NCBI GenBank assembly: GCA_030740155.1
Contig: JASLXV010000058.1
Span: 22,407-86,406 of the forward strand
Direction of reading: 5' to 3'
Source: Dehalococcoidia bacterium
GTDB taxonomy: Bacteria > Chloroflexota > Dehalococcoidia > Lucifugimonadales > UBA3495
Length of the DNA stretch: 64,000 nucleotides
Position numbers and translations under genes: made by a program. The notes under the pieces were generated by a model. It did no database searches, was not told where the DNA came from, and saw nothing but the letters and a program-made list of their open reading frames with translations. This document shows, one piece after another, positions 787 to 50,978 of the stretch (position 1 is the stretch's first letter; every line of letters starts with the position of its first letter).

Positions 787-1299
787 CTAGAGTTTCCCTG
801 CGATTCTTTCGGATTTGTCTCTGGCGGCGGCGGCGGCCAACGCCCTCTCCACCGCGTCCACCGGATCGGATGCCTGGATAATCGCTCCGTCGACGGGCCG
901 GCCTTCCCCGCTGTGAGTAAGGGGCCAGGTGTTCAGGCCCACGACGGGAATCCCGTCGCCCAGAGCGTGGCCGATCTCCGACAGCGTGCCGAAGGAGCCC
1001 CCGACGGCGATGACCGCTCGCCCGCTGTGGACCACGATGACGTTCCGCGAGTACCCCATGCGGGTGATGATGGGTATGTCCACGTAGGAATTGGCCTCCG
1101 ATGGGGAGCCGCCGGGCAGGATGCCGATGGTGAGCCCTCCCTCCAGCTTGGCGCCGCGGCAGACCGCTTCCATCACCCCCGAAAGTCCGCCGCAGACCAC
1201 CGTGGCCCCTCGTTTGGCCAACTCCCGGCCCACGGCCTCGGCCAGGACTTTGAGTTCCTCGGTCGCCCCTTCACTACTTCCAATAACCGATATGATCAT
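787..1299 (-). CDS. TIGR00725/LOG-like (SLOG Rossmann-fold) family protein
   Basis: 170-aa ORF with [12 protein letters not shown] and [11 protein letters not shown] glycine-rich motifs typical of the LOG/TIGR00725 fold. Its stop codon (787-789) abuts the eno GTG at 785. Confidence 0.7.
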
Positions 1300-1410
1300 C
1301 TAACGAAACACCTCGGTACTGTACGAAATAACCCGAGTATGGGACTGGGCATTATAGCAGCTTGCCCCTATATCCTGCCGCCAACACCCGCGGAGTTCGG
1401 AGGTTGCGGA

Positions 1411-1510
1411 GCCACAGAGGCACAGAGGCACAGAGATACGGAAATAAGGACGGTGTCACGGAGTCACAAAGAAAAACCTCTGTGTCTCTGTGTCTCCGTG
1501 CCTCTGTGGC
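1411..1510. repeat. Palindromic intergenic element, 'CACAGAGGCACAGAG' family, copy 1
   Basis: Left arm gccacagaggcacagaggcacagagatacgg is the inverted complement of right arm cctctgtgtctctgtgtctccgtgcctctgtggc. Related copies lie at 3040-3104 and 22626-22697. Confidence 0.8.
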
Positions 1511-1521
1511 TAACCCTCGTT

Positions 1522-3024
1522 CTAGGTTCCCGGCAAAATAGCCCGGCTCGCCGCCTCGATAGGATCGAGAATCGGGGCCGGGTAAACCCCGATCCAGACC
1601 ATCGCTACCACCCCGATGGCCAGCACCGCCAACAGCAACACCGGGGGCTTCCCGGCCAGGCCGGTCAGGCCCTGGGAAACCTCGTCCGCCTCGGGCTCCG
1701 GGCCGGCTTCGATGTACATCTGCCGTATCACCTGGAGGTAGTAGTAGAGGGAAATCAGGCTGGTGAAGATGGCGAGGCCGGCCAGCCAGAGGAACCCATC
1801 GTTGGCCACGGCGGTAAACAGGTAGAACTTGATGGCGAACCCGGCGAAGATGGGAAGGCCGCTCAGGGAAAACAGCCCCATGGCGATGGCGGCGGCCAGG
1901 AAGGGTTGACGGTCGGCCAGACCGGCGAAGTCGGCGATCAGCTCCTTCCCGGTCATGTTGAAGAAAGCGATCAGTCCGGCAAATACCACCAGGTTGGTGA
2001 TCGAATAGCCCACCAGGTAGAGCATGATGCCGTTGGAGGCCAGGGCCGAGTCCGAAGACAGGGCGGCGAAGCCCGCCAGGATGAACCCGGCGTGCCCGAT
2101 GCTGGAGTAGGCCATCATCCGCTTGATGTTCTTCTGGGCCAGGGCCACCAGGTTGCCCACGAGCATTGTCACCGCCGACAGCACCGCCAGGATAATCTGC
2201 CACTGGTCCCAGCGGTCGGTTGCGGGTACGAACCCCTCGGCGGTCAGGCGCAGCACCAGGGCAAATGCCGCCGCCTTGGACCCGATGGTCAGATAGGCGG
2301 TGACGGGGTAGGGCGCGCCCTCGTACACGTCAGGGGCCCACATGTGGAAGGGTACCGCTCCCACTTTGAAGCCCAGCCCCACCACGATCAGCGCCACGCC
2401 GACCCACAACGCCGGGCTAACCTCGGTGGCGGCTCCCAGGGCGATGCTGATGTCTTCAAACCGGGTTACCCCGAGGGTGCTGTACACCATGCTGATGCCG
2501 TACAGCATGATGGCCGAGGAGAAGGCGCCGATTATGATGTACTTGAGGCCGGCCTCGTTGGACTTGGCGTTGCCTCGGGCATAGGAGGCCAGCACGTACA
2601 GGCTGAAGCTGAGCAGCTCCAGAGAGATGTAAGCAGTCAAAAGCTCCCGGGACTGGGCCATCAGGTTCATGCCCAGGATCGAGAAGAGGAGCAGCCCGTA
2701 AAACTCTCCGGGGTTGTCGAGGAATTTCCTCACGTGCTCGATGGAGCTGAGTATGATGAAAACGCCCATGGCCAGGAAGAAGACCTTGAAGAACAAGGAG
2801 TAGTCGTCGATGGCCAGCAGCCCGCCGTAGAGCGATTCATCCTCGCCCCACAGCATCACCACCGAAACGCCGATCACGCCCAGAAGCCCGGCGATGGACA
2901 GCCAGGCCAGCAACTCTTTGCGATCGTCCGGCAGCACCAGATCGATGGCGAAGACCGCGAAAGCCAGGGCCGCCAACACGAACTCCGGCGTCAGCAGGTG
3001 CAGATTTTCGGTCAGGTCAGGCAT
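1522..3024 (-). CDS. nuoN: NADH-quinone oxidoreductase subunit N (antiporter-like)
   Basis: 500-aa polytopic membrane ORF with an Mrp/Nuo antiporter-like signature (AYSSIGHAGFIL). It is the last gene of the collinear nuoA-N array. Confidence 0.85.
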   Translation of the reverse strand: MPDLTENLHLLTPEFVLAALAFAVFAIDLVLPDDRKELLAWLSIAGLLGVIGVSVVMLWGEDESLYGGLLAIDDYSLFFKVFFLAMGVFIILSSIEHVRKFLDNPGEFYGLLLFSILGMNLMAQSRELLTAYISLELLSFSLYVLASYARGNAKSNEAGLKYIIIGAFSSAIMLYGISMVYSTLGVTRFEDISIALGAATEVSPALWVGVALIVVGLGFKVGAVPFHMWAPDVYEGAPYPVTAYLTIGSKAAAFALVLRLTAEGFVPATDRWDQWQIILAVLSAVTMLVGNLVALAQKNIKRMMAYSSIGHAGFILAGFAALSSDSALASNGIMLYLVGYSITNLVVFAGLIAFFNMTGKELIADFAGLADRQPFLAAAIAMGLFSLSGLPIFAGFAIKFYLFTAVANDGFLWLAGLAIFTSLISLYYYLQVIRQMYIEAGPEPEADEVSQGLTGLAGKPPVLLLAVLAIGVVAMVWIGVYPAPILDPIEAASRAILPGT

Positions 3025-3039
3025 TGGTTCTCGCTAGTT

Positions 3040-3104
3040 GACACAGAGGCATAGAGGACACAGAGAACAAACATAAGTCTCTGTGTCCTCAGTGTCTCCG
3101 TGGC
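3040..3104. repeat. Palindromic intergenic element, 'CACAGAG' family, copy 2 (between nuoM and nuoN)
   Basis: gacacagaggcatagaggacacagagaac ... gtctctgtgtcctcagtgtctccgtggc. Same arm sequence family as 1411-1510. Confidence 0.75.
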
Positions 3105-29404: not shown

Positions 29405-30256
29405 ATGGGACCGAACCTGGTAGATTACCTCCTGTACGAACCCGAGGACTCCGGCATTCTCTGGATCAAGTTCAATCGCCCGGAGCGCATGAACGCCCTG
29501 GCCGGGTCCTCCCACGAAACCGGCACGGTGGCGAAGGTTGGGGAATACATGCGGGCCGGCGACGACGACCCGAACATCCGGGTCATCGTCCTCACCGGCG
29601 TGGGCCGTGGGTTCTGCTCGGGCGCCGACATGAGGCGAGATACCGGGGACCTACTCCAGGGAGCGGATAACTTTGTGGGGGACCGGGGATCGGTGGAAGG
29701 CCCCGATTTCTCCAGAGAGCACTTCTTCCATGGTTTCACCAAGCTCCACCGAGACATCTCGCAAATCCGGAAGCCAACCATCGCCATGGTGAACGGGCCC
29801 GCCGTCGGGTCCGGCATGGACATGGCCTTGCACTGCGACATCCGGGTGGGTTGCGAGAACACCCGGTTTATCGGCTATCAGCAGTTGGGGCAGATCATGG
29901 AGAACGGGGGCAGCTACTACATGCCGAAGATGGTCGGCCTGGGCCGGGCGTTGGAGTTTGTCTACACGGGGCAACTGGATGCCCAGAGAGCCTACGAGTG
30001 GGGCTTGTTGAACCATCTGGTCGCCGCCGACAAGCTGGAGGAGACCACCAGAGAGTTGTGCGCCAGGATCATGAGGGTCCCTCCGCTGGTCCAATGGGTA
30101 AGCAAGCGGATCATGCGCACCGCCCTTGACGGCTCGTTGGAGTCCACGATGGTGTTGACCTCGAACGCCGGCGGCATCCTCAGCGGGTCGGAAGACGCTC
30201 AGGAGGCGAGGGCGGCGTTCTTGGAGAAGCGGGCTCCCACGTTTAAAGCTCGCTAG
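29405..30256 (+). CDS. Enoyl-CoA hydratase/isomerase (crotonase) family protein
   Basis: 283 aa. WIKFNRPERMNAL...VIVLTGVGRGFCSGADM...MVNGPAVGSGMDMALHCD. Preceded by GGAGAGGAG. Confidence 0.8.
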   Translation: MGPNLVDYLLYEPEDSGILWIKFNRPERMNALAGSSHETGTVAKVGEYMRAGDDDPNIRVIVLTGVGRGFCSGADMRRDTGDLLQGADNFVGDRGSVEGPDFSREHFFHGFTKLHRDISQIRKPTIAMVNGPAVGSGMDMALHCDIRVGCENTRFIGYQQLGQIMENGGSYYMPKMVGLGRALEFVYTGQLDAQRAYEWGLLNHLVAADKLEETTRELCARIMRVPPLVQWVSKRIMRTALDGSLESTMVLTSNAGGILSGSEDAQEARAAFLEKRAPTFKAR

Positions 30257-30421
30257 CCGATCTAGGGTCAACCACTCGAGGGAAGGCAAACGCCCTCCCT
30301 CGGGCAGAGCTTGGGGGAGATAAACCCAGTCCTGGACAACTCGACATATCGCTGCCTTTTCTTGCGAGTGATAATATTCAGGCGGCGTTGATTTTCAATC
30401 GTCTTTGGTGGGTGACCAGCT

Positions 30422-32026
30422 ATGGTGACCGCATTCGAGCTTGTTCCGAAAGGGTACTTCCCAAGAGAGCTTCCCCCTCCATTCACAACCAAACCGTTCG
30501 GCAATTTAACTAAACAATGGCGAGGCCAGACGCCACCAGGATTCGCATTAGATTTCCGTAGACCAATAATCACTAGACATGCAATTCATAATCTGACCAG
30601 ATTTGGATTAGTGAGACGCCAGCTTTCGATTCCAAACCCCGTGAACTTCTATCACATTGCATCTTTATTGGAAATGAATTGGAGTGGATTGCTGCCCAAT
30701 TGGAACAGCTCGAAGATATCATTGAGCAAACCGAGCGTTGATCCAGCAGCGGCTCGTGCGGTCATTCCTAGCCATCCGTGGAGCAGCCACCCGCTACATC
30801 GAGCGGCCTTAAGAGCGACATCAAAATATATCCTGAAATCAGATATTGATGGGTTCTACCCGTCTGTATATACCCACAGCATCCCTTGGGCTATTCATAC
30901 CAAACCCGCTGCTAAAGCAAATAGGAAACCTAATGCTCTTTTGGGTAATCAAATCGATCGTTGCCTCCAATACGCGCAAGATCAACAAACCAAGGGCATC
31001 CCAATTAGCCCCGATACATCACTTGTTATTGCGGAGATCCTCCTTGGAAGAGCTGACGTGGAGCTTGCCAAACTTATCCAGGTCATCGGATTTAGATCTT
31101 ACGATGACTATGAACTCGGATTTAGATCCCACGCTGATGCAGAAAACGGTCTTGCCGCCCTCCAAGGAGTGCTAGCGGAATACGAGTTGCAGATCAATAC
31201 CTCCAAGACTAAGATCATCGAACTCCCAGCATATCTTGATCCGCCATGGGGAACTGAACTCGGAGCACTCTCTATCGGCACGCGGTCACAATATCGCGAC
31301 CTTTTACGCTATGTCGATAGAGCATTTGAACTATTTCGCCAGCATCCCGGAGCTGATGTGTTGAAATATTCTATTAGCCGACTGAATTCGATAGTAATTG
31401 CAAGTTCTGAATGGGGGTTCTTTCAGGATTTCTTATTTCAATGTTCCATGGTTGAGCCTGCTACGTTGCATTTGGTCATCGATCATCTACATAGATACGA
31501 AGCAGCGGGCTATCCAATTGATAAGGTCAAGCTAGAAACGGTATTGAACACCCTGATGAGTTCCCGTGGCCCTTTGGGTTGTGGTAATGAAGTCGCCTGG
31601 GCCTTATGGGGCGCCATCCTTTTCAATATACCTGTTGACCAAATGTCCGCTAAAGTTCTCGAGAAGATGATTGACCCGGTGGTAGCCTTGCTTGCATTAG
31701 ACGCGAAGAATAAGAATCTGATCTCCAATCAAGTTACGTTCAGTCAATGGCTTGCCAACATGAGCCAAGCCGAGCTTGAAGGAAATCAGTGGCTATTCGC
31801 ATACGAAGTTAATGTTAAGGGCTGGTTGCCCCTGCCTGGTGGTACCGACTATGTGTTAGCCGATCCCCGGTTTGCTTTGCTAAAACAAAACGGTGTTCAT
31901 TTCTACGATGATTCACTTGTGTCTGCCCACGGGCCGACCAATCCAATATCGGTGAGAATCCCACGAAACCAGCCGCAAAACATTGACGATAGTCTTGTCC
32001 CGTCTTGGGACTCCAATTATTATTGA
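30422..32026 (+). CDS. Reverse transcriptase of the Abi/UG (defence-associated RT, AbiK/Abi-P2-like) type with a helical C-terminal domain
   Basis: 534 aa. RT motifs by eye: RRQLSIPNPVNFY (motifs 1/2, aa 65-77); ILKSDIDGFYPSVYTHSIPW (motif A, aa 137-156); KGIPISPDTSLVIAEILL (motif B, aa 191-208); FRSYDDYELG (motif C, YDD at nt 31100-31108); ELQINTSKTKI (motif E). About 260 aa of helical repeat-like sequence follows. G+C is far below the flanks: hand counts of 45% and 35% on two 60-nt lines, against 73% on a line of the neighbouring gene. Confidence 0.8.
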   Translation: MVTAFELVPKGYFPRELPPPFTTKPFGNLTKQWRGQTPPGFALDFRRPIITRHAIHNLTRFGLVRRQLSIPNPVNFYHIASLLEMNWSGLLPNWNSSKISLSKPSVDPAAARAVIPSHPWSSHPLHRAALRATSKYILKSDIDGFYPSVYTHSIPWAIHTKPAAKANRKPNALLGNQIDRCLQYAQDQQTKGIPISPDTSLVIAEILLGRADVELAKLIQVIGFRSYDDYELGFRSHADAENGLAALQGVLAEYELQINTSKTKIIELPAYLDPPWGTELGALSIGTRSQYRDLLRYVDRAFELFRQHPGADVLKYSISRLNSIVIASSEWGFFQDFLFQCSMVEPATLHLVIDHLHRYEAAGYPIDKVKLETVLNTLMSSRGPLGCGNEVAWALWGAILFNIPVDQMSAKVLEKMIDPVVALLALDAKNKNLISNQVTFSQWLANMSQAELEGNQWLFAYEVNVKGWLPLPGGTDYVLADPRFALLKQNGVHFYDDSLVSAHGPTNPISVRIPRNQPQNIDDSLVPSWDSNYY

Positions 32027-32066
32027 GCCATACGGACCGAGATACCACTGCGTAACAAATTCGACT

Positions 32067-33104
32067 TTACGGCTTTAACACCAGCTTGCCGAAGAAGTTG
32101 GTCTCTTCCATGGCGCGGTGGGCGGCGGCGGCCTCTGCCAGAGGGAAGGTCCGGTCGACGACGGGTCGGATGGCCCCTCGGTTCAGCATCGCCACGATCT
32201 CCCGCATGTCCTCCTTGGTGCCCATGAAGACCCCGTGCACTTCCACCTGCCGGCTGAACAGCAGGCCCAGGTGCAATTCGGCGCGCAGACCGGTGGTGGC
32301 GCCACAGGTACCGTAGCGTCCTCCCGCGCGCAGCGACCCGAAAGCCTTGGAGAAAAAGTCGGCCCCCACGTGGTCCACTACCGCGTCCACTCCGGTCCCG
32401 CCGGTCAGGGCCTTGGCCCGTTCGGTGATGTCCTCTTCGTTGTAGTTGATCACCTCGTCGGCCCCCAACTCCAAGGCCTTGGCCGCCTTCTCGGCGGTGC
32501 TGGTGGTGGCGATAACCCTGGCGCCGATGATGTTCTTGGCCACCTGGATCGCCGCGGTGCCGACACCGGCGGAGGCGGAGAGGACTAACACCGTCTCCCA
32601 TGGCTTCAGCCGGAGGCGGCGCACAAGCATGTTCCAGACGGGCAGGAAGGTGGTGGGCACGGCGGCGGCTTCCTCGTAGGAGACCGAGTCGGCAATTATG
32701 TGGGCGTTGGCCGCCGGCACGGCTACCAACTCGGCGTAGCTGCCGTCCATGGCGCTGCCCATGAAGCGAGGCCTGGGGCACAGGTCATCCTGGCCGGCCA
32801 GGCAAGCCGGGCATTGCTGGCAGCTAAAGCGGGGGTTCACCACCACCCGGTCACCGGGCTTGAGCCCGCTCACCCCGCTGCCGGCCTCCACCACGTCGCC
32901 CGCGCAGTCGCCTCCCAGTATCAGCGGCGGCGGAAACTCGCGGCGAAGCCCCCGGCCACCCTCCCGGGTGTAGAGGTCCAGCCGGTTCAACGCGGTTGCC
33001 CGGACTCGTATCTTTACCTGGTGGGCCTCGATTGCCGGGTCGGGACGCTCGCCGTAGGTCAAGACGTCTGGGCCGCCGTGGGCTTCGATGTAGACTGCCT
33101 GCAT
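32067..33104 (-). CDS. Zinc-binding alcohol dehydrogenase / quinone oxidoreductase (MDR superfamily)
   Basis: 345 aa. GGDCAGDVVEAG, CQQCPACLAGQDDLC (structural Zn loop) and the SASAGVGTAAIQVAK nucleotide-binding motif. Confidence 0.8.
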   Translation of the reverse strand: MQAVYIEAHGGPDVLTYGERPDPAIEAHQVKIRVRATALNRLDLYTREGGRGLRREFPPPLILGGDCAGDVVEAGSGVSGLKPGDRVVVNPRFSCQQCPACLAGQDDLCPRPRFMGSAMDGSYAELVAVPAANAHIIADSVSYEEAAAVPTTFLPVWNMLVRRLRLKPWETVLVLSASAGVGTAAIQVAKNIIGARVIATTSTAEKAAKALELGADEVINYNEEDITERAKALTGGTGVDAVVDHVGADFFSKAFGSLRAGGRYGTCGATTGLRAELHLGLLFSRQVEVHGVFMGTKEDMREIVAMLNRGAIRPVVDRTFPLAEAAAAHRAMEETNFFGKLVLKP

Positions 33105-49125: not shown

Positions 49126-49563
49126 CTAGATCAGGGGGACGGTGGTGCCCTTCGCCCGGTATTGGCGTTCCTCGGAAGTGCCGGTTTGAATAAAGTCGCA
49201 GACGATCTTGTAGACCCGGTCCATTTCTTCATCGAAGTTGCGTTTGAAGAAGTAGGGCGGCACCCAGACTCCTCCAAAGGCGCCAACCACTTCAGGGTAA
49301 TCGTCGATCACGAACTCCGGCTCGAAGGGGACCTTCAGTTCCGCCAGCCGCTCGTGAAAATGGTGGGTGGGCTTTTCATAAACACCGCTGGTAAATGGGC
49401 CCAGTTCGTGTTTCTCCACCACCTCCCAGCGCTCCCCCATGCCGGACCAGATGTATATCTCGTGGCCATCGCTTATCAGCTTTTCAAAGTTCTCTTTGGT
49501 ACCGGGCCGGAGGCTGTCGTCCAGCCCCAGAATCGTGTAATCCACATCGAAAAAGATCTTCAT
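49126..49563 (-). CDS. HAD-superfamily hydrolase-like protein
   Basis: MKIFFDVDYTILG (DxDxT motif I) and ...IYIWSG...IDD. Start set at ATG 49563; the ORF-track start adds 33 implausible residues. G+C is lower than the backbone (50% on one hand-counted line). Confidence 0.5.
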   Translation of the reverse strand: MKIFFDVDYTILGLDDSLRPGTKENFEKLISDGHEIYIWSGMGERWEVVEKHELGPFTSGVYEKPTHHFHERLAELKVPFEPEFVIDDYPEVVGAFGGVWVPPYFFKRNFDEEMDRVYKIVCDFIQTGTSEERQYRAKGTTVPLI

Positions 49564-49719
49564 ATATGGGTATCTGCCTTCTTTCCTCGAAAAACGATTT
49601 GCAAATCCGTGGGTGATTATAACGCATAATCGCCGCCGATTACAGCATGAATAATTATGCACGAATCAACGGTTAAATTCCCCAGCCAAGCGCACCGGTT
49701 GGAATGGAGGGGCGCCGGG

Positions 49720-50079
49720 TCATCCGGTACCCTCCAGTGCGGCCTCGATTGACCTCAGGTTCGCTCCCACCACCAACCGCCCGCCGATGCGGGCCAGGGG
49801 CCGGCGGACCAACCGGGGCTCCTCGAGAATCAGCGCGAGCATCTCCTCCTCGGACAGCTCCCGGCCTGCCATGCCCTTCTGCTTCAAGCTGGGGCTGCGC
49901 CAGGCGAATAGCTGAGAGAAACCCACTTCAGAGGCCAGCTCCCGGACCTCACCCTCGGTGAACGGTTCCTTGAAGAAGTCCCGCTCGTCCAGCTCCAGGC
50001 CTTTTTGTAAGAGCAACTCTCTCACTTTGCGGCAGGACGATCAACGGGGCCACCAGTAGAACGCTACTTTATTACTCAA
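49720..50079 (-). CDS. ArsC/Spx-family thioredoxin-fold protein with in-frame TGA (50041-50043) in a U-x-x-C motif; candidate selenoprotein
   Basis: From TTG 50079 (GAGG 6 nt upstream) it reads M/L-SNKVAFYWWPR-TGA-SSCRKVRELLLQKGLELDERDFF.... ArsC/Spx proteins carry 'xxYxxPxCxxCRKAxxxL' at exactly this position. The ORF-track ORF starts after the TGA and lacks this motif. Confidence 0.6.
50007..50025 (-). promoter_or_regulatory. SECIS-like hairpin 15 nt downstream of the TGA
   Basis: The mRNA reads GUGAGAG-AGUUG-CUCUUAC: 7-bp stem (one G-U pair) with a 5-nt loop containing GU. Confidence 0.4.
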
Positions 50080-50177
50080 GAGGTACCTCGCACGAACATT
50101 TTAGGCTAACCGTGTGCATGTAAACGGTCCCTTTCCGTTGTTGGCAAACTAATTTACCGCTGTCAGGCTCGGGAGTT

Positions 50178-50206
50178 TCGACACCCATTTTCTTGTTGGC
50201 TATAAT
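50178..50206 (+). promoter_or_regulatory. Near-consensus promoter of the SieB-like gene
   Basis: TCGACA-cccattttcttgttggc(17 nt)-TATAAT. The -10 hexamer ends 6 nt before GTG 50213, which implies a leaderless or very short-leader mRNA. Confidence 0.55.
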
Positions 50207-50212
50207 GGCGTT

Positions 50213-50731
50213 GTGTTGAGAATGCTGTTTGGGCGCATCGGGTATCCCATTCGAATCCACCTTACCGTATCGTTCGTGACGGCCAGCGCTTTGTTGTTTC
50301 TCGTGTTCGCTTCGGACAACACGTTGGACGATTTGGGGATGATGGATAACCGGACCGTCTATACACTGGGCTTCGGCCTTGGTCTGGTCTTCTCAAGCGC
50401 CGCCATTATTATTCGGTTCGGAGTTCATGCTATCCACTGGGGATTGATCGCTCACAGCCGAAGTACCGTCATCACTACCCGCCAAGAGGGCCTCCATCAC
50501 CTAACTGAACCGCAAAAGGCAATCCTGAGACGCTTTATCATGATCGAATCGAAAACTCAAACCCTGCCATCGGGTGATGGTGCCGTTAAAGGGTTGAGAT
50601 TCGCTCGAATCATTTATCGTTCCGCCGATGCCGTACCGAGCGACACCGTGGACCAAAGTTCTCCCATGTTTGACTATATCATCCATGATTGGGCTTGGGA
50701 TTACATCAACAAACACCCTGAGATTCTGTAA
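50213..50731 (+). CDS. SieB-like (superinfection exclusion protein B family) two-TM membrane protein
   Basis: Two N-terminal TM helices, followed by LTEPQKAILRRFI...TLPSGDGAVKGLRFARIIYRS...FDYIIHDWAWDYINKHPEIL. This matches my recollection of the SieB-family C-terminal pattern (LSxxExxIL...G.v..L....IIy....f.y.i..WAw.yl.knPell). G+C is lower than the backbone (48-55% on three hand-counted lines). The start may be GTG 50213 or ATG 50222. Confidence 0.5.
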   Translation: MLRMLFGRIGYPIRIHLTVSFVTASALLFLVFASDNTLDDLGMMDNRTVYTLGFGLGLVFSSAAIIIRFGVHAIHWGLIAHSRSTVITTRQEGLHHLTEPQKAILRRFIMIESKTQTLPSGDGAVKGLRFARIIYRSADAVPSDTVDQSSPMFDYIIHDWAWDYINKHPEIL

Positions 50732-50978
50732 TGGGCGTCTGCCAGGCACAATCTCTTTGATGCGTCGAGGTGCAAGAGGGCATCCAGCCCCGCCAGGCGC
50801 CCCTCCCCTCGGTCCCCTCCTTGGTATGGAAGGGAAGCTGACGTTCCAGGACCTGGGCGGAAACTTGCGGCACACCTTGCCGCTTGGGCGTGTGCTGACC
50901 GCTGAGCGCTGACGGCTTACGATTTCTTGTGCGGCGCTGGAACCGGGTGGTAGAATTGTCCCGGTTAGGGGGCGTGTT

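Follow-up and report, generated by a model that had tools for sequence, protein, structure and literature searches.

The window analysed here is a stretch of 64,000 nucleotides from contig JASLXV010000058.1 (assembly GCA_030740155.1), whose host, judged by the flanking genes, belongs to SAR202/Dehalococcoidia (Chloroflexota). SAR202 is an abundant, uncultured deep-ocean lineage of the Chloroflexota. The subject of this study is a reverse transcriptase (RT) gene occupying an islet of ~1.8 kb within the window, bordered 5' by a crotonase gene on the + strand (Pfam ECH_1, E=2.5e-41) and 3' by a convergent gene for a Zn-dependent dehydrogenase (ADH) on the - strand. An initial annotation, made from the letters of the DNA, had described a single open reading frame (ORF) of 534 residues at 30422-32026 (+), and this is indeed the sole long ORF of the interval 30257-32066. 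The neighbouring genes in the window include two of DNA repair, for an OGG glycosylase and a DinG-like exonuclease-helicase. By comparison with relatives that lack the RT, the inserted segment extends from ~30255-30270 to ~32066-32081, with alignment to these relatives lost at 30254-30269 and regained at 32067-32082.

Base composition changes abruptly at the islet, and the contrast that the initial annotation had counted on single lines holds for the complete genes. The RT gene has 47.2% G+C and a third-position G+C (GC3) of 0.464, against 62.4% and 0.845 for the crotonase gene, 67.2% and 0.858 for the ADH gene, and 62.5% G+C for the whole window, and no other stretch of more than 1 kb within the 64 kb falls below 54% G+C. 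A terminator-like hairpin had also been described after the crotonase stop at 30282-30309. The hairpin is present in the minimum-free-energy fold and is GC-rich, with corrected coordinates of 30275-30304, but it has no U-tract on the + strand, so its designation as terminator-like is only loosely justified. The features of the locus are listed below.

30422..32026, + strand: DRT6/UG12-type RT gene, 534 residues, stop codon included (ORF, PADLOC Drt6, PDB 9wy8, Foldseek, and the ratio of nonsynonymous to synonymous substitution rates, dN/dS)
30422..31276, + strand: RT fingers/palm domain, ~residues 1-285 (Pfam RVT_1 at 126-266, invariant columns, mixed beta/alpha model)
30842-30844, + strand: motif A Asp141
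31103-31108, + strand: motif C R-S-Y-D-D, D228-D229
31289..31921, + strand: all-helical alphaRep domain in place of a thumb, ~residues 290-500 (model helices H290-307 to H482-489)
31922..32023, + strand: disordered C-terminal tail, ~residues 501-534, ending ...WDSNYY (drop in model confidence)
30373..30421, + strand: upstream cassette block with palindrome GTTGATTTTCAAT (homology with the related locus L001 runs from 30373 into the ORF)
30270..30372, + strand: window-specific left-edge spacer including the hairpin 30275-30304 (no match to the related loci L003, L086, L090 and L001)
32027..32066, no strand: 40-nt spacer from RT stop to ADH stop, right edge of the insert (homology resumes at 32067 in L086 and at 32082 in L003)
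29405..30256, + strand: enoyl-CoA hydratase (crotonase) gene, outside the system (Pfam ECH_1)
32067..33104, - strand: Zn-dependent dehydrogenase gene, outside the system, conserved anchor of the junction (Pfam ADH_N and ADH_zinc_N; adjacent to the junction in all compared loci)

Family assignment and fold

Among the PADLOC models, the best match of the protein is Drt6 (UG12), PDLC03748, with E=7.6e-159 and 527.8 bits over protein residues 5-499 and profile positions 5-481 of 511; the profile check that the initial annotation had proposed thus led to Drt6, not to an intron or retron model. PADLOC's own Drt4 models PDLC02177 (514 bits) and PDLC02179 (500 bits) come close to this over nearly their full length, so automated annotation could call DRT4 or DRT6 by tie-breaking. 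A further Drt4 (UG15) model, PDLC03752, which shares the 'DRT' description with the Drt6 model, reaches 252 bits. Matches to AbiK (E=1e-34, residues ~57-269), AbiP2 (E=3e-32, residues 135-266), Drt3a (E=1.6e-7), Drt3b and other models are confined to the RT core, and no Drt2 or Drt9 model occurs among the 25 best PADLOC matches listed. A phmmer search of the PDB ranks the DRT6 chain 9wy8_A, a maltose-binding protein (MBP) fusion, first (E=6.2e-73, residues 6-499), followed by DRT4/UG15 (1.5e-26), Abi-P2 (2.6e-17) and AbiK (2.3e-11).

The AlphaFold2 model, a monomer computed with 110 homologues, has a predicted local distance difference test (pLDDT) score of 92.9 and a predicted TM-score (pTM) of 0.92. 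It consists of a mixed alpha/beta RT domain, an all-helical region at residues ~290-500, as had been expected for the C-terminal half, and a disordered tail; the helices of the middle region, from H290-307 to H482-489, have pLDDT >90. Foldseek places 9wy8, 'Cryo-EM structure of the hexameric DRT6', at the top, with TM-scores of 0.86 (query-normalised) and 0.92 (target-normalised), a root-mean-square deviation (rmsd) of 2.5 A and 31% identity over 508 columns. DRT4/UG15 structures follow at 0.75-0.81 (0.81 at rmsd 4.5 A), AbiK at up to 0.70, Abi-P2 at 0.51-0.63 and AbiA at ~0.4. The C-terminal region had been singled out for structural prediction, and it adopts an alpha-repeat (alphaRep) fold; the superposition on DRT6, DRT4 and AbiK is full-length.

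The profile, PDB-sequence and structural rankings therefore identify the protein, almost certainly, as a class 1 UG/Abi RT of the UG12/DRT6 family. Since DRT6/UG12 is already defined, phage-tested, assayed and structurally solved, the RT is another member of a known family and not a new kind of system. The family comprises 1,037 clusters at 50% identity (E<=1e-30). No close relative of the RT was found in the phage and plasmid collections, where the best matches are Abi-P2-type RT cores of P2-like phages (27-30% identity) and, over the full length, matches on Bacillus megaplasmids (~30% identity).

The same rankings bear on the origin from a mobile retroelement, be it a group II intron, a retron, a diversity-generating retroelement (DGR) or a remnant of one. 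Weak similarity to all RTs at the level of RVT_1 and the NCBIfam group II intron match (E=5e-7) speak for such an origin, yet the latter scores 29.1 bits against a cutoff of 300 and the retron St85 model 15.5 bits against 235. Group II intron, retron and DGR RTs reach query-normalised TM-scores of at most 0.36, compared with 0.86/0.92 for DRT6, and a C-terminal alphaRep domain such as that of the query is a usual trait of class 1 UG/Abi RTs. No intron, msr/msd or template/variable-repeat (TR/VR) RNA, no TR/VR-like repeats and no Rfam intron or retron RNA are present at the locus. A retroelement origin is refuted at the level of these tools and can be given practically no weight, in keeping with the UG/Abi-type assignment made from the motifs at the outset.

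A DRT4 (UG15) identity, rather than DRT6 (UG12), has more in its favour, namely the PDLC02177/PDLC02179 scores of 514 and 500 bits against 528 for Drt6 and the fold similarity to DRT4. It is nevertheless very unlikely: the NCBIfam Drt4 equivalog NF041749.1 gives 223.4 bits and does not reach its cutoff of 450, PDLC03752 lies far below Drt6, the PDB match and the superposition are both better for DRT6 (6e-73 against 1.5e-26; TM 0.92 at 2.5 A against 0.81 at 4.5 A), and Tyr125, absolutely conserved in DRT4, is absent (PMC12783706). The choice between the two hardly changes the mechanism predicted for the RT.

Among the characterised relatives, the DRT6 of Sphingopyxis sp. (PHR10625.1, 9wy8) ranks first in profile, PDB sequence and fold. 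It has the same RT plus alphaRep architecture, belongs to the same length class, has the motif A context D-I-x-x-F-[FY]-P-S-[IV]-Y-T-H-[ST]-I-P-W in common with the query and is likewise a stand-alone gene. It differs in having RYVDD in place of RSYDD and Phe at the positions of Y12 and Y146, and it comes from a proteobacterium, whereas the host of the query is an uncultured marine SAR202 Chloroflexota. DRT4 (UG15; E. coli WP_031606642.1; PDB 9vdo, 9vdv, 9l9s, 21ou) is also a single-gene system with the same domain organisation, and is the best-understood mechanistic model (PMC12783706). At ~24-26% identity it shares the catalytic Asp residues with the query, and R66 and Y461 of the query correspond to R75 (a mutated dNTP/DNA-contacting residue) and Y475 of DRT4. 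AbiK of Lactococcus (7r06) and Abi-P2 (7r08), with TM-scores of 0.53-0.70, are also class 1 UG/Abi RTs with an alphaRep domain and carry out template-independent, Tyr-primed synthesis; the motif A/C region can be aligned, but sequence similarity is confined to the RT core at ~60-270. In these two, the priming Tyr (Y44, Y61) is placed on a fingers loop near the N terminus, and the oligomeric geometry is different (PMC12783706). AbiK and Abi-P2 are plasmid- or prophage-borne, while the query gene is chromosomal and has no mobile-element genes beside it.

Stand-alone organisation and capture at the OGG|ADH junction

In agreement with the initial annotation, the islet contains no integrase, transposase or second ORF, and no meaningful direct or inverted repeats flank it, only short chance-like matches. 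No Rfam family match and no tRNA gene were found at the locus, and the search for consensus promoters and terminators gave nothing meaningful. The block at 30373-30421 probably contains the ribosome-binding site and part of the promoter, although a simple scan of its + strand did not reveal a consensus sigma-70 site. Each homologous locus examined has different neighbours, with no conserved partner, as expected of the single-gene system first proposed. Three of the six homologues in other contexts lie in defence or mobile surroundings (CBASS with integrases; a Tn7-like element with type I restriction-modification (R-M); an R-M plus HepT/MNT island), and the rest form solitary islets. The RT is thus a stand-alone gene with no non-coding RNA (ncRNA) partner, within the limit that an RNA overlapping the ORF is not provably absent in silico.

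An RNA would be central if the RT were an ncRNA-dependent, class 2-like enzyme in the manner of DRT2, DRT9 or DRT10, its scaffold and template being a structured RNA encoded within the leader of 165 nt or in overlap with the ORF. The leader does fold somewhat better than shuffled sequences (z = -2.3), and ~49 nt before the ATG are conserved with the related locus L001, from 30373 onwards. The main contribution to this modest fold signal, however, is that of the hairpin behind the crotonase stop, in sequence that is specific to the window and not common to L001. The intergenic regions around the RT of L001 measure only 83 nt upstream and 29 nt downstream, and the leader of a further RT-bearing locus, L085, shows no similarity to that of the window. 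The lack of an Rfam match, the class 1 alphaRep RTs at the head of all profile and fold rankings and the TM-score of at most 0.35 to DRT9 point the same way. DRT6 and DRT4 both work without RNA (PMC12783706). An ncRNA-dependent enzyme is accordingly highly improbable, and the protein-only mechanism favoured earlier on account of the short leader gains from both the experiments on DRT6 and DRT4 and the compact intergenic regions of L001.

The comparison of relatives that had been suggested for the crotonase/ADH junction revealed presence/absence variation. L002, a JGI contig of essentially the same strain, has the same arrangement with the RT present. In L001, which is more distant, the order is helicase-OGG-RT-ADH with no crotonase; its RT is 75% identical and its flanks are 59-84% identical. 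L085 carries a family member of 49% identity at the same OGG|ADH junction. The RT is absent from L003, the closest genome in the species-representative collection, in which the flanks are 77-94% identical, the order is helicase-OGG-crotonase-ADH and the crotonase-ADH spacer measures ~125 nt. It is absent as well from L086, the closest metagenomic relative, and from L090, these two and L003 being the closest genomes. In metagenomes, 80 ADH-anchored loci were sampled, ~56 of which have a scorable OGG|ADH or crotonase|ADH junction, and none of these ~56 junctions carries an RT. Most have an OGG-ADH gap of 6-60 nt, and OGG directly beside ADH is taken as the ancestral state; the remaining scorable junctions contain 0.15-5.4 kb of other cargo.

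This cargo is varied. The larger inserts encode a crotonase, a CoA-transferase of family III, a two-component system (histidine kinase and response regulator) accompanied by an RskA-like protein with Met/Ser/Glu repeats, or a flavin monooxygenase of FMO-like type together with an MFS transporter; cargo of 0.65-5.4 kb occurs in other lineages, at the junction downstream of ADH in L100, L101, L119, L135, L109, L121 and L147. In L086, where ADH and crotonase are 95% identical to those of the window, the crotonase|ADH gap measures 958 nt with a G+C of 0.57 against 0.635, and holds an 83-residue ParE-like toxin ORF (L086:1341-1592, -) that scores 24.8 bits with PF24732, barely above the cutoff of 24.4. 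The same junction therefore hosts different small accessory cargo. As the cargo is mostly metabolic or regulatory, OGG|ADH is a general variable spot and gene-gain hotspot rather than a dedicated defence island. It resembles core-gene-flanked defence hotspots in being one conserved junction whose cargo differs by genome, including two distinct DRT6 alleles and the ParE-like ORF, and differs from them in its mostly metabolic or regulatory cargo and the lack of an integrase or repeats.

The crotonase gene was itself inserted, at an earlier time, into the ancestral OGG|ADH junction. Its orthologues (81-86% identity) lie in unrelated context in 78 of 80 SAR202/Dehalococcoidia genomes, and it stands beside ADH only in the window, L002, L003, L086 and L090. 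With 78 of 80 loci elsewhere, crotonase proved a poor anchor for the junction, and ADH was used in the metagenomes instead. A second junction in L001, between the RNase III and FtsY genes, holds a 497-residue protein with TIR_2 and NosD/beta-helix regions (L001:15918-17411, +) that has no PADLOC match; L002 has no called gene at this position, and the protein may be another defence-type insertion.

The RT copies of the window and L001 both have a GC3 of ~0.47, compared with 0.85 and 0.70 for their hosts, and all examined members of the subclade have 45-52% G+C in hosts of 56-63%. At synonymous third positions that differ between window and L001, the G/C:A/T count is symmetric in the RT (62:61), against a G/C excess of ~3:1 in the window copy of the flanking genes (ADH 62:20, OGG 41:16, helicase 166:55, DsbA 32:12). 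The divergence of the two RT copies therefore took place outside these two genomes, and the G+C of the RT shows no signal of amelioration towards the host. Long vertical residence was considered because the synonymous distance (dS) of the RT, 1.02, equals that of the adjacent ADH; it was rejected, as dS is near saturation, the RT, unlike all four flanks, shows no host-specific compositional drift, and many independent losses would be needed.

In a neighbour-joining tree, the RT of L085 (P0016) falls in a sister subclade, and the intervening members sit at sites with no relation to the junction: a CBASS/integrase island, an HTH...DUF433 locus, a position between MgtE and YCII, and an R-M/HepT-MNT island. 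Common descent of the RTs at the junction was likewise rejected, with only 2% of bootstraps tightly grouping the query with P0016. The separate position of the L085 RT and the dispersed sites of the intervening members indicate separate captures at one junction, at least two in number and probably three. The absence of the RT from L003, L086 and L090 and the symmetric synonymous count bear out the horizontal acquisition proposed earlier: the gene is horizontally acquired as a minimal cassette of 1.7-1.8 kb, comprising the ORF with ~50 nt upstream and ~40 nt downstream. The simplest inference for its entry without a recombinase is homologous recombination via the conserved flanks. The locus shows cleanly, in a natural setting, how a defence gene can travel in so small a cassette and settle at a junction of core genes.

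Active site, priming and proposed mechanism

The RT motifs quoted in the initial annotation were confirmed, and in the family alignment they occupy columns that are invariant or nearly so. Conserved motif columns comprise R65/R66, N72/P73, D141, Y146, S148, Y150-T151-H152, P155-W156, G192, D198, S200, E205, R225, D228-D229, N259 and K262-T263, of which D141, Y150, H152, W156, R225, D228, N259 and K262 are invariant. All three catalytic Asp residues (D141, D228 and D229) are retained on such columns, and the alphaRep domain keeps its conserved residues W393, W396, W457, Y461, W468 and F494-Y495. Relative to the 75%-identical copy in L001, dN/dS is 0.145 over 534 codons with no frameshift or stop, within the range of 0.10-0.18 of the flanking genes, and this copy and the 99%-identical one are both intact. 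The gene is under purifying selection and functional by evolutionary criteria.

The motif C region contains an imperfect direct repeat of 22 nt (31086-31107 and 31116-31137, 86% identity, 30 nt apart), which encodes a duplicated G-F-R-S flanking the catalytic YDD (IGFRSYDDYELGFRSH); the family consensus likewise has GF..DDYEFGF.

Experimental work on the family provides a mechanistic frame. UG12 received the name DRT type 6 after it had protected E. coli against T5 and ZL-19 in a manner that depends on the RT active site (PMC9226505). The DRT4 hexamer, built as a dimer of trimers, constitutively synthesises random single-stranded DNA (ssDNA) from Tyr125 without template or primer; the host 3'-5' exonuclease ExoI/SbcB removes the product, and T5 ORF55 triggers toxicity. 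The ssDNA synthesis of DRT4 and DRT6 turns toxic once a phage DNA-binding protein shields the product. The Sphingopyxis DRT6 is oligomeric, needs no template to make DNA that is covalently attached to the protein, acts by abortive infection, and is toxic with co-expressed ORF55 and in an sbcB knockout (all PMC12783706). A cryo-EM study of DRT6 has been published by Wang et al. 2025 (BBRC 791:152955, PMID 41223699, as cited in PMC13314766).

Carried over from these relatives, the mechanism would run as follows. The RT would assemble into a hexamer (by analogy with 9wy8 and PMC12783706) that constitutively makes random-sequence, template-free ssDNA starting on a hydroxyl side chain of the protein itself, yielding a covalent protein-DNA product. 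In the uninfected cell, host 3'-5' ssDNA exonucleases would trim this product. Upon infection, a phage ssDNA-binding protein would shield the 3' end so that ssDNA accumulates, and the cell would be arrested or die before the phage cycle ends, that is, by abortive infection. Taken as a whole, a stand-alone, horizontally acquired anti-phage RT of the DRT6 family with such a DRT6/DRT4-like mechanism is considered a probable account of the gene.

Several observations weigh against this account. The tested DRT6 is no more than 31% identical to the query, which leaves room for biochemical differences in detail, and Pfam RVT_1 matches residues 126-266 at 28.6 bits, just under its gathering cutoff of 29.6. 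Motif C reads R-S-Y-D-D instead of the majority R-Y-[LIV]-D-D, a form shared by only 5 of 119 homologues. Tyr125 of DRT4, invariant in 174 DRT4 proteins and located in a palm loop (PMC12783706), aligns with S117 of the query; there is no Tyr between R112 and R131 of the query, and a Tyr occurs in this stretch in only 86 of 251 family members. In addition, the gene is set amid housekeeping genes, no classical defence island exists in the 64-kb window, and PADLOC matched none of four other unusual ORFs of the window, the SieB-like gene described below included.

Part of this evidence would suit a DRT6-family gene that is no longer defensive, whether inactive and decaying or co-opted for a host role such as DNA-damage tolerance. 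RSYDD, four departures from family-conserved residues (Q183 for R, G281 for R, V298 for F, E330 for N), the housekeeping setting and the DNA-repair neighbours, OGG glycosylase and exonuclease-helicase, all favour such a fate. It is improbable, since the ORF and its copies are intact under a dN/dS of 0.145 and the catalytic Asp residues and invariant columns are all kept. RSYDD recurs in the five homologues at a naturally variable position, the first variable position of motif C also taking I, N, H and F. Patchy presence in close relatives fits an accessory defence gene, not a core function, and in the window crotonase separates the RT from OGG, so these two genes do not form one operon. A defensive DRT6-type RT remains the preferred reading.

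The priming residue of this RT is a question of its own. As Tyr is missing at the DRT4 site in about two thirds of the family, this priming site is not a feature of the family, which raises the mechanistic question of the primer residue in DRT6. Hydroxyl residues kept in at least 90% of the family are T23, S100, S102, Y146, S148, Y150, T151, T190, S200, T263, Y461 and Y495, among which Y146 is presumably the steric-gate position of motif A. From conservation, T23, S100, S102, Y150, Y461, Y495 and the Tyr residues of the tail emerge as candidate primers. The tail of the query ends ...SNYY, and its last three 10-residue blocks have pLDDT of 57, 48 and 33. A Tyr occurs in the tail of 207 of 251 homologues (82%) and within the last three residues in 114 of 251, as in 54 members of the 119-homologue set. 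The C-terminal aromatic tail could be a priming site or a partner-binding tip. Across the family, tails are disordered, variable, often acidic or Gly-rich, and frequently end in aromatic residues (EEEY, EGEY, TGGY, NYY, DYY).

These results extend DRT6/UG12, an experimentally characterised single-gene family, to SAR202; a search of the available literature turned up no paper that ties SAR202 to defence against phages or to RT systems. The prevailing view of defence RTs does not change, and the value of the gene lies in its annotation and in a divergent homologue (31% identity) for comparative enzymology. A more speculative proposition concerns the SAR202 DRT6-like subclade, which may use an alternative primer, either a Tyr of the disordered tail or a conserved Ser/Thr such as S100 or T23. 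Its AT-rich coding may be maintained by selection rather than reflect recent transfer, for instance by throttling expression of a constitutively active, potentially toxic polymerase. That a primer residue not of the DRT4 type, AT-rich coding kept by selection and a junction repeatedly capturing cassettes without a dedicated recombinase all hold together is a tentative idea, and rather doubtful in its entirety.

Other unusual genes

Two further regions of the window depart from their surroundings. A 713-residue ORF at 913-3051 (+) has a GC3 of 0.60 against ~0.8 in its neighbours and no Pfam or PADLOC match; it could be a spurious ORF or one more gene of foreign origin. PADLOC gave no matches for this ORF, the SieB-like ORF, the neighbouring ORF at 49129-49662, a 71-residue ORF, the ParE-like ORF of L086 and the TIR protein of L001. 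The SieB-like ORF (50213-50728, +, 172 residues) matches Pfam SieB, superinfection exclusion protein B, over nearly the whole profile (E=3.2e-19) but no PHROG family. It lies in a weaker low-GC patch at 49901-50800 (~50.5% G+C, GC3 0.60), and may be a second gene related to phages, at a distance of 18 kb from the RT.

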